Positions 53,804-63,620 are shown, counted from the first letter of the stretch. The stretch: DNA of 64,000 nt from a virus (IMGVR_UViG_3300032270_001445:1-64000); one strand, 5' to 3'. The notes: generated from the letters alone by a model not told the origin. Numbers and translations: made by a program.

Positions 53804-53869
53804 TGAGTTCCAGTCCTAGCAGCCGCGGCTGCTAGGAGCCTAACGATAATAGCCCCTAGCAGCCGAGGA

Positions 53870-54148
53870 TTATGCGGAGTAGTAATCCAACTCCATCTTC
53901 TCCACGAAGTTATCGTCAACTTCAATCTCGCTATATTCCACAACGAAGCCTTCCCGCGCCATTGCGGTTATGAACAATGGTGCGTCACAATCTTCTTCAA
54001 GGTAGACGCTTCCGTTGCCTTCGTATGAGCAGTTGCTCACAACGCTGGCGATACCGAGTTGGCGAAGCATAGCCTTCTCCGCTACGAGGTAGCCGTGCCC
54101 TGGCGTATTGAACTTCCGCGTGAAGTAGGTTGCCGAGATTCCGAACAT
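53870..54148 (-). CDS. cassette gene: hypothetical (PGHGYL...YLEEDCD family)
   Basis: AAGGAGG RBS; motif seen in small phage/plasmid proteins. Confidence 0.75.
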   Translation of the reverse strand: MFGISATYFTRKFNTPGHGYLVAEKAMLRQLGIASVVSNCSYEGNGSVYLEEDCDAPLFITAMAREGFVVEYSEIEVDDNFVEKMELDYYSA

Positions 54149-54276
54149 TGGTGCCTCCTTGCTTCCCTACGGCAACTGCCGCAACGCAATACTACGCGAA
54201 CTTCTGGCAGGTTGTCAAGCGTTCCATCCTAAGCCACCGCGGTGGCTTAGGGCTGAACCCTAAACCACCGCGCTCG

Positions 54277-54606
54277 CTACGCGTTCGCGTTCTCTGTCTG
54301 TTGTCGCTCGTTCTCTATTGCTTCGTCGGTGTAGTGCTTCGCGATCTCCCGCCAATCAACGCGCGAGAGTGAGGCGCCGAGCAAATCGGTCACGAGCCCA
54401 ACCGCCGCCTCTGGTAGCGTGTTGGTCACTTCCTCCTTGAGCCACTTGCCCATTTCATAGGCTGCGAAGTTTCCGTCGCTGTCGTTGCTTTCTGCGAACG
54501 CACGAGCCTGCTCCTCTACTCCGTGGAGGTCTCCGATGATCCCCTCACCGAGCCAGAGATTGACGAGCCATGTCTCGTAGTTGCTCCAGCCGTTGTAGTC
54601 TGCCAT
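54277..54606 (-). CDS. cassette gene: YNGWSNYETW-family hypothetical
   Basis: AAGGAGG RBS, ATG 54606. Confidence 0.8.
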   Translation of the reverse strand: MADYNGWSNYETWLVNLWLGEGIIGDLHGVEEQARAFAESNDSDGNFAAYEMGKWLKEEVTNTLPEAAVGLVTDLLGASLSRVDWREIAKHYTDEAIENERQQTENANA

Positions 54607-54764
54607 TTTTGCCTCCTTATGACCTAGCGGGAAGCCCCGCAAGGGAATACTAAACGAACTCCTAGCGAACTGTCAAGCGTTCTATTCCAATGTGCCGCGG
54701 CACATTGGAGCCTAACAATAAACCCCGCCGAAGCGGGGCTTATTGTTTCCGCAGCTGCGAAACT

Positions 54765-55172
54765 TTACGCCATCGGATAGTTGCCCAGTTCTAGAAGCGT
54801 CTTGATTTCCGCAACCTGCTCATCGCTGAACGCAAGCGTCTTGCCGTCCTCGTCCTCTGCGGTGAGTACGCAGTTGCCGTAGATTCCGTCAAACACGCCG
54901 CCAAGAATCTCATTGCGCAAAGATGTTGCCGCCTGATTGCGAATCACAGGCTCGTTGTATAGCCCTTCCTCGTCGCACCAAAGCACCACGCTCGTCGCGC
55001 CGTACTTACCAGAAGCCGCAACCTCTACCAGGCTCCACTCGCCGACTCGGTAGAGTTCGGTGAGCGTGTTGCCGTCATCGTTGAAGTCCACGACCTCAAC
55101 CCAGTTGAACAGCGCGGGGACTGGCGTAGCAGTCTCAAACTTTCCAACTCCGAACTTGATTGCCTTACCCAT
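54765..55172 (-). CDS. cassette gene: DUF3846-like protein
   Basis: LWCDEEGL...N..AT...I.GN.VL motif; AAAGGAGG RBS. Confidence 0.7.
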   Translation of the reverse strand: MGKAIKFGVGKFETATPVPALFNWVEVVDFNDDGNTLTELYRVGEWSLVEVAASGKYGATSVVLWCDEEGLYNEPVIRNQAATSLRNEILGGVFDGIYGNCVLTAEDEDGKTLAFSDEQVAEIKTLLELGNYPMA

Positions 55173-55287
55173 TTGCTTGCCTCCTTTGCCTTTCATCGGG
55201 AAGCCCCGACCTCTGAATCTTACGCGATAAAGTTCCAGCCTGTCAAGGGGTTCTATCTCAAATGGTCGCGACCATTTGAGGCTGAAC

Positions 55288-55529
55288 AAAATGATAAGGG
55301 TCTGACTGGCACCACACCAACCAGACCCTTATCGGCATTTCGCTGCCTTTGACGCTTATCCTCTTGCGAGGAGAGGCTTCACCTTCCGGCTGCCTCTTGC
55401 GAACGGCGTAGGTGTCGGTTAGGCACCCCCACCGCTCGTCCTTATCGTCTCGGGTAGTTAGTCTACAACTACCAACCAGCCGCAGCCCCATAAGCCCGCC
55501 ACTTTCACAGCGGCACCAGAGCGGCTCGT
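55288..55529 (-). ncRNA. candidate structured non-coding RNA cassette A
   Basis: TTGACG-17-TAGAAT promoter (55564-55536), terminator 55293-55333, no RBS-led ORF, several hairpins, motif shared with 57637-57866. Confidence 0.6.
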
Positions 55530-55615
55530 GTGATGATTCTAAACGAACATCTGCCAGCCGTCAAGCGTTCTATCCCAAATGGCCGCGGCCATTTGGGGCT
55601 GAACAATAATAAGAG

Positions 55616-61198: not shown

Positions 61199-61502
61199 TT
61201 TCGTCCTCGTCATCTGCGCCCTGCTCAATGAGGGAAATGAATCCGTCATTAGGGTTTGCGTGATTCGTGCGAACTGCCTGAACGAAGCGCAAGCCGCAAG
61301 AGTCCGCGTACCAGTCCTGAATCGTTGCGAGCATTTCGCTTGGCGTGAGATCATCTGCGGATAGAAGCGGGTCGTATCCGTACTCCTTCATCTGAGCCAT
61401 CTGCTCATCGTCCATCAAGACATAAATCTTGTGGCATTGGTCAAAGCCGATTCCCTTTGCCATCTCAACCGCAACCTCTACCTTGTCCCAACTAGCAGCC
61501 AT
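61191..61502 (-). CDS. cassette gene: acidic hypothetical
   Basis: AAGGAGG RBS, ATG 61502. Confidence 0.75.
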   Translation of the reverse strand: MAASWDKVEVAVEMAKGIGFDQCHKIYVLMDDEQMAQMKEYGYDPLLSADDLTPSEMLATIQDWYADSCGLRFVQAVRTNHANPNDGFISLIEQGADDEDENE

Positions 61503-61665
61503 CACAACCTCCTTATTTCCCAACGGCAAGTGCCGTCTAGTGGATTGTCCCATACCCGCGTACCAGCCGTCAAGCGTTCTATCCCAAGTAGCGGCGGCTA
61601 CTTGGGGACGAACCTAATAAATAAGCCGCCCCCGAAGGGACGGCTTATTTGCATGCGACTAACGA

Positions 61666-62208
61666 TTACGCTGGTACTTCTTGCTTCGCAGCCTCTTCCT
61701 TTGTGATCTTGCCGCTGCGAATCGCATCGCGGAGAGCGATGTGCTCGCCCCAAGTGATCGCGTCCTGCTCTGGGTTCTCCTTCTCCGCGTGTCGGAGTTC
61801 ACGCAATCCCTCTTCCTCCATACGCTCCATCACGCGCTTGCGCCAAGCCCCTGCCGTCTCGTATGAGGCGTTGGTGTTCAGCCCGATGTGATTCACGAGA
61901 TCGGCTCGCGTAATCATGCGTGGCTCCCACTTGATGTTGCCGTCGCTCTCGTATCCAGCAAACACCACCATCTTGCTAATCCAGTCAATGTGATAAGCAA
62001 GGGCAAGACGCTTCTCCCACTCGTCAATGTTTCCTTCGGTAATCTCATTGAGTCCGATGCTCATCGTCAGCCAGACGATGTTGTCGGTGATTGGGTGCGT
62101 GTATTCATTGCCTCGGATCACGCCATCAAATGTGCGCGTCTTTACGGCGGTGAAGTAGCAGATGTCGTCTGAGTTCTTTACTTCGCGTACTGACCAGTTC
62201 AGCGGCAT
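61666..62208 (-). CDS. hypothetical protein
   Basis: AAGGAGG RBS. Confidence 0.75.
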   Translation of the reverse strand: MPLNWSVREVKNSDDICYFTAVKTRTFDGVIRGNEYTHPITDNIVWLTMSIGLNEITEGNIDEWEKRLALAYHIDWISKMVVFAGYESDGNIKWEPRMITRADLVNHIGLNTNASYETAGAWRKRVMERMEEEGLRELRHAEKENPEQDAITWGEHIALRDAIRSGKITKEEAAKQEVPA

Positions 62209-62217
62209 AGAGCCTCC

Positions 62218-62445
62218 TTACTTCTTCTTGGTGGCGCGCTTTGCGCCAGACTCACGGATCGCCTTTTCCAGTTTCGCCGTGCGCTTATCGGCGTGATGGC
62301 TGCTGATGACGAAGAACGCCCAGATCGTTGCTGGAATCCAGCCGATCAAGGTGAACTGAAGAATCAGCGCGATGATCGCCTGAAACCATTTGCCAGCAGC
62401 CAGAAACCCGAACGCTGGAAAGAGCAACGCTAACAGGTACTTCAT
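62218..62445 (-). CDS. YqaE/Pmp3-family small membrane protein
   Basis: YLLALLFP...IALILQFTLIGWIPATIWA signature. Confidence 0.8.
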   Translation of the reverse strand: MKYLLALLFPAFGFLAAGKWFQAIIALILQFTLIGWIPATIWAFFVISSHHADKRTAKLEKAIRESGAKRATKKK

Positions 62446-62640
62446 TTCCTACCTCCTTACTCGTTATCGGGAAGTCCCGATAGATGGATTTTCTCACAGG
62501 TACTAGCGACCTGTCAAGCGTTCTATCCCTCATGGCCGCCGCCATGAGGGGGCGAACCTAATAAATAAGCCCCGCCGTTTCCAGCAGGGCTTATCTACAC
62601 TTGGGCTGGGCGCTGTGATTGTACCCAGCCCAGAATCTAA

Positions 62641-63477
62641 TCAGCCTCCGACAACACCTCCGAAATGCTCATCACAGAAAGACTCGTACTCGGTCATCGG
62701 CACTTTGTCGTAATCACGCTCGCCCCACTCAATCTTGCCGTTCTCATCTTTGAGCCAAGCGTCGTCCCCGATGTCCTCTGCGCTGTATTCCATACGCGAG
62801 GCTTCTTGACCACCCTCGTAGACAACCTGACCAGCGAAGCCCATACCGCCCTCGCAATAGCGATGGGTAATGGTGAGCATTGGAAACTGCTCCGCAAGCG
62901 CGGCGATCAACGGCTCAACAGGAGCCCACGCCGTATCAAAGTTGTACGAGGTTTGACCCGCCACCATTCCGTCAGCGTTGTCTACTCGGTCGTTCCACGC
63001 TTCGCTTGCGCTCCACTTGGAACCCCAGTTCTCAACATTCCAGTTGTACCACCAGTCTGGGTGATTGGCGTTTCTTGGTACGAAATGTTCTGGGCAAAGT
63101 TCCGTGCCGCCAAACTCTGAATCAACAAACCCACGAAGTGTTGATGTGTCTGGCGTGCCGCGGACAATCGCCTTGCCATTGACCTGACGCTCGTGCTGGT
63201 AGACCATCTCCTTTACTTCCTCGCCGTCCACATTGCGAACTTGCTCGGTCTTTGGAAGGTCGGTAAGTTCCACCCACTTATCCTTACAGCCGCATTGGAA
63301 ATCATTCTGCCCTTCGTTGATCGTGTAGAACTTGCTGGTCGGCGGCGGCAGAATCTTTGCGAAGGAGAATACATCGTCTTCGTTCGTACTCGTGTCGCCC
63401 TTGACGAAATCAACAAGCCTTGCGACATCTACCTCGTCGCCGCTAATGTCCACTTGGTTCACGCACCAGTTAGGCAT
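62641..63477 (-). CDS. DUF1281/YubB-like ferredoxin-fold protein
   Basis: MPNWC.N, FSFAKILP.P, WY.WNVENWGSKW, FDTAWAP, HRYCE.GMGF.G. Confidence 0.8.
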   Translation of the reverse strand: MPNWCVNQVDISGDEVDVARLVDFVKGDTSTNEDDVFSFAKILPPPTSKFYTINEGQNDFQCGCKDKWVELTDLPKTEQVRNVDGEEVKEMVYQHERQVNGKAIVRGTPDTSTLRGFVDSEFGGTELCPEHFVPRNANHPDWWYNWNVENWGSKWSASEAWNDRVDNADGMVAGQTSYNFDTAWAPVEPLIAALAEQFPMLTITHRYCEGGMGFAGQVVYEGGQEASRMEYSAEDIGDDAWLKDENGKIEWGERDYDKVPMTEYESFCDEHFGGVVGG

Positions 63478-63620
63478 CTTCTTTACCTCCTTGTATCACA
63501 GACAGGGAAGCCCCTGCCGTTAGATTGTAAGCCAGATTATAGCCAGCCGTCAAATAGCCCACCTTCGGTTCTATCCCACATGACCGCCGTCATGTGGGGC
63601 CGAACTTAATAAATAACGAT

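Follow-up and report, generated by a model that had tools for sequence, protein, structure and literature searches.

What does a short DNA palindrome do when it stands, at one fixed length and in one orientation, at the joints between small phage gene cassettes? The question is raised by IMGVR_UViG_3300032270_001445:1-64000 (the window), whose 64,000 nt open a viral genome of 85,238 bp (G000) with an IMG/VR completeness rating of 100%. An initial annotation of the window had likened its minus-strand palindromes of 38 bp (38-mers) to the attC sites of integrons. We find that the 38-mer is an elaborate variant of the promoter early stem-loop (PeSL) type of cassette joint described in T4-type phages, with a hairpin-capable DNA palindrome as the fixed joint, and not a new integron-like machine. 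The full reading that we favour, a PeSL-type joint at which a protein would dock and cassettes would be exchanged by general or replicative recombination, is one that we consider about equally likely to be right or wrong.

Occurrence and shape of the 38-mer

Searching with the loose pattern GTTC-N30-KAAC gave 32 strand-hits, compared with 3.5 +/- 2.1 in shuffles, and these collapse to 16 palindromic loci, each of 38 bp and on the minus strand, between 53807 and 63605. Neither the pattern nor a covariance model found further copies in the rest of the 85,238-bp genome. The model was built on 56 copies from the window and three related genomes (G001, G002 and G003). It scores 16/16 window copies at 56-72 bits on the minus strand, with the opposite strand 25-35 bits lower, and when four whole genomes were scanned its matches were confined to homologous arrays. 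Pattern, fold and covariance thus agree with the sixteen elements of exactly 38 bp that the initial annotation had reported, and the covariance search of relatives that it had suggested finds them only in homologous arrays.

Read on the minus strand, the element consists of GTT(C/A), 3 nt, a 10-nt arm, a 4-nt loop, the complementary 10-nt arm, 3 nt (mostly ATA) and GAAC. GTT and GAAC are invariant in 56/56 aligned copies, and the length is fixed, with 68 canonical 38-bp copies in five arrays and a single 37-bp variant. Every window copy, folded as single-stranded DNA, takes this shape (-9.8 to -15 kcal/mol; z-scores -3.3 to -6.4). What was first described as a 4x4 bubble is a 3x3 internal loop, since covarying pairs, 34 C-G and 22 T-A, occupy the fourth position. 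The earlier observation that the stems differ and yet pair stands, refined to a 10-bp stem with a 4-nt loop, and the centres, given before as CCGCCG, CGGCGG or GC, are in the window CCGCCG, CGGCGG, CCGCGG and once TCGCGA. The promoter-proximal side of the 38-mer is more conserved than the distal side, and element position and polarity are constant in phages that are only 65-84% identical.

The sixteen window copies are as follows, where spacing is the distance in bp to the -35 box of the next promoter.

e1: 63568..63605, minus strand, 38-bp palindrome, 14 bp upstream of the -35 box
e2: 62520..62557, minus strand, 38-bp palindrome, spacing 2
e3: 61576..61613, minus strand, 38-bp palindrome, spacing 2
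e4: 60508..60545, minus strand, 38-bp palindrome, spacing 3; arms as in e7, loop flipped
e5: 59734..59771, minus strand, 38-bp palindrome, spacing 2
e6: 59045..59082, minus strand, 38-bp palindrome with GTTA start, spacing 0; before the DUF932 cassette
e7: 57916..57953, minus strand, 38-bp palindrome, spacing 13; before an ORF-less cassette (no open reading frame, ORF)
e8: 57594..57631, minus strand, 38-bp palindrome, spacing 2
e9: 57135..57172, minus strand, 38-bp palindrome, spacing 3; arms without the usual CCAA/TTGG
e10: 56674..56711, minus strand, 38-bp palindrome, spacing 3
e11: 56187..56224, minus strand, 38-bp palindrome, spacing 3
e12: 55567..55604, minus strand, 38-bp palindrome, spacing 2; before the second ORF-less cassette
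e13: 55250..55287, minus strand, 38-bp palindrome, spacing 3; centre TCGCGA
e14: 54679..54716, minus strand, 38-bp palindrome with GTTA start, spacing 2; its stem accompanies upstream gene family 'e' in four genomes
e15: 54221..54258, minus strand, 38-bp palindrome, spacing 2
e16: 53807..53844, minus strand, terminal 38-bp palindrome, no promoter downstream; perfect stem, right internal loop CTG and not ATA

Variant or decayed copies were seen in relatives at L038:10184-10233, L039:3905-3952 and L039:9968-10016; one of the three lacks the left clamp and the promoter while its stem is still perfect, one lies 55 nt from its promoter, and one is 37 bp long. The strict element pattern had no match in 185,579 prokaryote genomes, so there is no host or prophage copy at that stringency. 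Rfam had no match at the gathering threshold, and at E <= 1 it gave sub-threshold matches only, which we read as noise from terminator-like hairpins.

Pairing is maintained in DNA

Across the 56 copies from four phages, all 10 inner pairs vary on both sides and 99.8% of cells are paired, compared with 32-50% of cells in slid controls and 79% in shuffled ones; 0/500 shuffles match the observed score. Only one of 680 inner pairs in the 38-mers is G.U (0.1%), whereas in the same arrays G.U makes up 53/610 pairs of terminator stems (8.7%) and 100/656 pairs of hairpins in 5' untranslated regions (15.2%; Fisher p = 5e-17). The loop is GGCG in 20 copies and CGCC in 15, so these reverse complements are used about equally, and 6/22 pairs of elements with identical arms differ by exact inversion of the loop alone. 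G003 and the metagenome contig L057 are 99.94% identical over 3358 nt, and both of their differences make up one such flip, at L040:5443-5480, where the central 4 nt are inverted (CGGCGG versus CCGCCG). The near absence of G.U, together with a loop used both ways, indicates a DNA palindrome and not an RNA helix read from one strand. The 38-mer is therefore selected, or at least maintained, as DNA able to pair on both strands, in line with the earlier description of a DNA-level element with conserved structure and variable sequence. The array is also a natural case in which G.U content tells DNA hairpins from RNA hairpins within the same loci.

Rosche, Trinh and Sinden in 1997 reportedly accounted for loop inversion by strand switching in hairpin-forming inverted repeats. 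Hairpin formation in vivo is documented by the loop inversions that separate near-identical environmental genomes. At quasi-palindromes, template switching is known to increase the perfection of inverted repeats (PMC7202029). It yields paired changes without intermediates, so covariation alone is not proof of selection for the hairpin.

Cassettes are reordered at the 38-mer

A cassette consists of a sigma70-type promoter, a 5' hairpin, at least one ORF or non-coding RNA (ncRNA), usually an intrinsic terminator, an A/T tract and the 38-mer. Gene families were mapped across five arrays, those of the window, G001, G002, G003 and contig L054. Cassettes recur from array to array, in an order that differs in all five, and the DUF932 cassette is found after three different neighbours. 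For neighbouring genes split by an element, adjacency was kept in 27 comparisons and broken in 87, while for genes within one cassette it was kept in 19 and broken in 8 (p = 1.4e-5, for comparisons that are non-independent). That the elements bound the cassettes, as had been proposed, is thus borne out by relatives whose order changes at them, and the comparison of cassette order called for at the time places the breaks at the element.

Alignments anchored on the element place the switch in homology. Where the upstream cassette is shared, excess identity spans the A/T tract and the stem and ends after GAAC; where the downstream cassette is shared, it starts within the spacer of the promoter. 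The switch point coincides with GGGATAGAAC-NN-TTGAC, the run with the highest conservation. The unit of shuffling is the promoter, the genes, an optional terminator, the A/T tract and the 38-mer. The stem follows its upstream cassette weakly, with mean arm differences of 2.55 for a shared upstream cassette, 3.26 for a shared downstream cassette and 3.98 for unrelated ones, and this association does not place the crossover inside the element.

A second array, on the plus strand at 46900-53760 of the window, converges on the first. Its mini-genes, about 14 in number, recur roughly every 500 nt, and in front of each is a conserved spacer of 210-250 nt that has neither a 38-mer nor a sigma70 consensus promoter. 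The spacer parts are a G+C-rich hairpin, a TATAGAAC-TTC-GTTCTATCCC box, TAACTAAC repeats, a GCCGC-TCC-GCGGC hairpin and a GTATTCTTCTTGTA-like motif. Gene content and order in this array likewise differ among relatives. Outside both arrays, the genomes are colinear at 65-84% identity.

If the exchange depended on a dedicated recombinase or HUH enzyme, as had been suggested, its gene might be expected in the genome, and the Pfam searches that bear on this were empty. Six-frame searches of the complete genomes G000, G001 and G002 and of the G003 fragment gave no match to the tyrosine recombinase family PF00589, with controls matching, and none to the serine recombinase family PF00239. Six frames of three complete genomes had no Pfam match to Y1 HUH (PF01797), DDE (rve) or IS110 enzymes. 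The operon divergent from the array begins with small genes, and there is no large unknown gene beside the array. Pfam and PHROGs searches with the cassette and neighbouring genes for a regulator or enzyme returned nothing usable, as did PDB sequence searches with the DUF932 and DUF1281 proteins. Since no recombinase was matched and the plus array is shuffled without 38-mers, general or replicative recombination is sufficient.

We therefore think it unlikely that the 38-mer is a structure-specific site of the attC kind, at which a folded strand or cruciform would be cut and rejoined by an unrecognised phage enzyme or a RusA-type resolvase. Much of the architecture would suit such a site: there is one element per cassette, the structure is kept while the sequence varies, the asymmetric internal loop sets a polarity, the cassettes are the units of rearrangement, and identical 38-mers stand between unrelated flanks, as at e4 and e7. 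The phage also encodes a RusA resolvase and an exonuclease, and many phage proteins have no known family. What tells against it, besides the unmatched recombinase, Y1 HUH, rve and IS110 families, the lack of a large unknown gene beside the array and the shuffling of a plus array that has no 38-mers, is that the change of homology falls in the best-conserved run (GAAC to TTGAC), where exchange by simple short homology would put it, and that the polarity is opposite to that of attC. If it were true, with the hairpin or cruciform cut at its base by, for example, a RusA-type resolvase or an unannotated phage protein, complete promoter-gene units would move in a phage as cassettes do in integron attC x attC recombination.

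Promoters, terminators and the place of the palindrome

Each cassette has its own promoter of the form TTGAC-N17/18-TAnnAT, and 15/16 window elements precede such a sigma70-like promoter. These are listed in array order.

63524..63553, minus strand, sigma70-type promoter of cassette 2 (DUF1281/Api92-like protein)
62488..62517, minus strand, sigma70-type promoter
61544..61573, minus strand, sigma70-type promoter
60475..60504, minus strand, sigma70-type promoter
59702..59731, minus strand, sigma70-type promoter
59016..59044, minus strand, sigma70-type promoter of the DUF932 cassette, directly abutting the element
57873..57902, minus strand, sigma70-type promoter of an ORF-less (ncRNA) cassette
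57562..57591, minus strand, sigma70-type promoter
57103..57131, minus strand, sigma70-type promoter
56641..56670, minus strand, sigma70-type promoter
56154..56183, minus strand, sigma70-type promoter
55536..55564, minus strand, sigma70-type promoter of the second ORF-less cassette
55217..55246, minus strand, sigma70-type promoter of the DUF3846 cassette
54647..54676, minus strand, sigma70-type promoter of the DUF7249 cassette
54189..54218, minus strand, sigma70-type promoter of the last cassette

The distances from element to -35 box are, in order, 14, 2, 2, 3, 2, 0, 13, 2, 3, 3, 3, 2, 3, 2 and 2, with none for the last copy; all of the values noted earlier (0, 2, 3, 13 and 14 bp) are recovered, and the final copy at 53807 is indeed promoterless. 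In the five arrays together, 65/68 elements lie upstream of a sigma70-like promoter, at a spacing of 0-5 or 12-14 and never 6-11. There are 16 canonical elements and 16 promoters, and the first promoter (-35 at genome position 64025, beyond the window) lacks a canonical copy. Upstream of it, at a distance of 13 nt, stands only a degenerate 43-nt GTTA...TCGAAC hairpin (G000 64039-64081, in the divergent promoter region), with an inner stem that covaries between the window, G002 and L054.

The left flank of the element is always A/T-rich: in some joints it is a canonical terminator's T tract, in the others a stop codon with AATAAATA after it. A canonical terminator precedes the 38-mer in about 60-70% of joints, and 41/68 have a hairpin of -14 kcal/mol or better. 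What comes after the 38-mer is NN-TTGAC and not a U tract. Two further ideas were set aside: GAAC as the -35 box of an extracytoplasmic function (ECF) sigma factor, where nothing is conserved 16-17 nt downstream (baseline spacer identity 0.32), and an antisense terminator on the plus strand, in which the hairpin is followed by T-rich DNA, which suits only the joints with a AATAAATA flank and leaves a strong stem 7 nt from the tract.

These flanks bear on the proposal that the hairpin works in read-through RNA, as a back-up terminator, a 3' stabiliser or an insulator against occlusion of the next promoter. The element is always at the 3' end of a cassette, about 1/3 of joints have no canonical terminator upstream, the fold is stable as RNA (-15 to -30 kcal/mol), and the terminal copy has no promoter, all of which speaks for such a role. 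We nevertheless find it improbable, given that no U tract follows the hairpin, that in about 2/3 of joints the element sits beyond a complete terminator and its T tract, that G.U is virtually absent, unlike in true RNA hairpins of the same loci, that the loop occurs in both orientations, and that Rfam has no match.

A role in DNA that needs no protein is likewise unlikely. Driven by supercoiling, a cruciform would absorb negative supercoils near the promoters and perhaps bring the A/T tract to the -35 box as an UP-like element, tuning or insulating the tandem promoters. The strand-symmetric and purely Watson-Crick pairing, the A/T-rich left flank that is present even where there is no terminator, the tight distance to the -35 box and the hairpin between the divergent first promoters are all in keeping with this. 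In the Lilley laboratory's work on cruciform kinetics, a G+C-rich centre reportedly slows extrusion from duplex DNA at physiological salt. The centre of the element is very G+C-rich (GC-NNNN-GC) and by these kinetics should extrude slowly, and the strand-specific GGGATAGAAC motif outside palindromes is left unexplained.

Weakest of all is the notion that the 38-mers have no present function, being quasi-palindromes that perpetuate themselves, travel with the cassettes as passengers and owe their perfect pairing to template switching alone. It is very unlikely because, although stems evolve near the spacer rate (identity 0.71 for pairs homologous on both sides, against 0.66 for the flank) and decayed copies without clamps or promoters retain perfect stems, GTT and GAAC are invariant in 56 copies, the length is fixed (one 37-bp variant against 68 canonical), position and polarity are fixed across phages 65-84% identical, and 99%-identical contigs show 1 element difference against 4.9 expected.

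A probable protein-docking joint

The distribution of one motif bears on the docking part of the PeSL-type reading. GTTCTATC has 18 copies in the genome, all on the plus strand, where about 1.3 per strand are expected from genome length. Eight are in 38-mers, 8 in the TATAGAAC-TTC-GTTCTATCCC boxes of the plus array and 2 in non-palindromic 28-mers. The latter stand in tandem directly 3' of a tRNA-Ile(TAT), at G000 66334-66395 (L041:3334-3395), beyond the window, and are conserved in G001 (~83205) and G002 (~47533). On the minus strand they read GTTATTGC...GGGATAGAAC, which are the end motifs of the 38-mer, with no hairpin. This distribution and the better-conserved promoter-proximal side of the 38-mer suggest a protein that reads (G)GGATAGAAC.

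The 38-mer would then be a shared cis-site, and protein docking at it is probable on these sequence patterns. Contact would be made with the invariant GTT...GAAC ends and with the promoter-proximal arm (G)GGATAGAAC, and the bound protein may control or insulate the adjacent early promoter. The core would fold as a single-stranded DNA hairpin, and template switching could copy one arm onto the other and so keep the palindrome perfect. Cassettes would swap at the joint by short-homology or replication-slippage recombination, using general functions of the phage (PD-(D/E)XK exonuclease, RusA resolvase) and no integrase. The molecular role of the palindrome, whether as docking site, hairpin or cruciform, is in each case something we infer.

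Several points weigh against this account. The binding protein was not found: the first array gene (by Atlas look-up) and the other candidates had no informative match. About 10/68 elements lack the CCAA/TTGG arm motif and still have perfect stems, which favours recognition of structure over sequence. The 12-14 spacings come from just two orthologous promoter groups, so that an argument from helical phase is weak. A purely promoter-linked role leaves some cases unexplained, and so does a purely 3'-end role, since the terminal copy stands without a promoter and only a degenerate copy precedes the first promoter. A dimer that binds duplex DNA would need no palindromic core, and the core would then be explained solely by the presumed mutational mechanism. 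The binding protein or an enzyme that cuts at the site, if one came to light, would open a way into early-gene regulation or into a new mechanism of exchange.

Cassette products and genome setting

The products of the minus-strand array include DUF932, DUF1281/Api92-like, DUF3846 and DUF7249 proteins, cysteine-rich mini-proteins and two ORF-less RNA units. Several of the proteins are very cysteine-rich, for example with 15 Cys in 157 amino acids. In the 5' leaders (window 53870-63953, minus strand), a small and often GGCACTTGCCG-like stem-loop is conserved downstream of the -10 box and upstream of a strong AAGGAGG ribosome-binding site. The two ORF-less cassettes (window 57640-57900 and 55290-55560, minus strand) have a full promoter and terminator and no ORF with a ribosome-binding site; they are highly identical in G001, G003 and L054, have no Rfam match, and are probably early phage ncRNAs. 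Host-takeover or anti-defence functions are to be expected for early genes that turn over so fast, and the joints show how such a gene repertoire can be rebuilt module by module without an integrase.

The host of the arrays is a siphovirus-like freshwater phage with a lytic-type genome, of which the two arrays of tiny early genes make up about a fifth. The genome encodes a terminase, a portal protein, a prohead protease and a capsid protein of the SU10 type, and the replication and recombination block consists of the PD-(D/E)XK exonuclease, a DnaC-like loader and RusA. The best database matches of the portal protein are at <=27% identity and megablast of the array against GenBank phages had no match, so there is no cultured relative or host. 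Relatives were found solely in IMG/VR and metagenome contigs. Going by accession prefixes, which no tool has confirmed, we take the source metagenomes to be freshwater lakes.

Giant adjoining ORFs of 3493 and 2417 amino acids occupy 8796-26531 of the window (plus strand). Matches of the first are confined to tape-measure families and span residues 1740-1840 only; the second had no match in PHROGs. A 627-amino-acid protein (window 32364-34247, minus strand) joins a prohead serine protease domain (Peptidase_S78) to a ferritin/Dps-like domain. A tRNA scan of the 64-kb window found none, and beyond it a second tRNA besides tRNA-Ile, Arg(TCT), lies at L041:9763-9838. Two proteins with a ParB-N domain, of the ParB-like nuclease or partition family, are encoded at L041:5860-6378 (minus strand) and L041:11210-11887 (plus strand). 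Terminal repeats of 117, 22 and 123 nt resemble assembly overlaps, and we do not infer genome ends or the order of DNA entry from them.

Comparison with known systems

The hairpin promoters of the N4 virion RNA polymerase, which had been named as a possible model, have a stem of 5-7 bp and a 3-nt loop, serve a giant virion RNA polymerase and have no host-type promoter. In contrast, the 38-mer has a 10-bp stem, a 4-nt loop and a sigma70 promoter downstream, and the 3493-amino-acid protein is only tape-measure-like, so this reading falls. Intrinsic terminators differ in having a directly following U tract, which the 38-mer lacks, and in their G.U content.

Like REP sequences (repetitive extragenic palindromes) and the BIMEs (bacterial interspersed mosaic elements) built from them, the 38-mers come after stop codons or terminators, measure about 35-40 nt and are imperfect palindromes in which the mismatches set a polarity. 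They differ in the absence of a RAYT (REP-associated tyrosine transposase) or other Y1 transposase (PF01797), in a head of GTTC and not GTAG, in their coupling to promoters, in their Watson-Crick stems, and in occurring as just 16 copies in one phage array. Template-switch hotspots at quasi-palindromes (PMC7202029) share the hairpin-forming repeats, the equalising of arms by strand switch and the paired changes without G.T intermediates; they are a mutational process, however, which explains the upkeep of the palindrome and not its presence.

With attC sites the 38-mer has in common that one imperfect palindrome of conserved structure and variable sequence stands at the 3' end of each cassette, that inverted GTT/AAC triplets are at its ends, that unpaired bases give it polarity, and that the cassette is the mobile unit. 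The triplet order differs, being GTT...GAAC in 56/56 copies, on either strand, versus AAC...GTT in attC. There is no IntI or other recognisable recombinase with the array, and each of its cassettes has its own promoter, whereas integron cassettes are promoterless and share a common Pc promoter. attC sites range in length from roughly 57 to 141 bp; the 38-mer is fixed in length and sits in a phage genome of lytic type. Of the likeness first drawn, the architecture (one site per cassette, structure kept) holds, and identity with attC, given the GTT...AAC polarity and the promoters within each cassette, does not.

The closest published precedent, which the initial annotation did not consider when it suggested an undescribed cassette system, is the PeSL cassettes of T4-type phages, in which a stem-loop and a sigma70 early promoter are repeated in hyperplastic regions (Arbiol et al. 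2010, PMC2839356; Comeau et al. 2014, PMC4122927). PeSLs mediate modular shuffling without a known recombinase, and their authors drew the comparison with integrons themselves (PMC2839356, PMC4122927). PeSL mini-circles have been demonstrated by inverse PCR (PMC2839356, PMC4122927). In both, a stem-loop with an A/T-rich stretch near it lies just upstream of a near-consensus sigma70 early promoter, between small ORFan genes, and in both the breakpoints of insertion, deletion and displacement among relatives fall at the motif. The PeSL stem-loop is itself the terminator, whereas the 38-mer is a second hairpin, usually after a separate canonical terminator, with a fixed length, invariant GTT/GAAC clamps, a 3x3 internal loop, Watson-Crick covariation and no U tract. 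The hosts of PeSLs are T4-type myoviruses and the host of the 38-mer is a siphovirus-like freshwater phage, so that the PeSL principle extends from T4-type myoviruses to an unrelated freshwater phage lineage.

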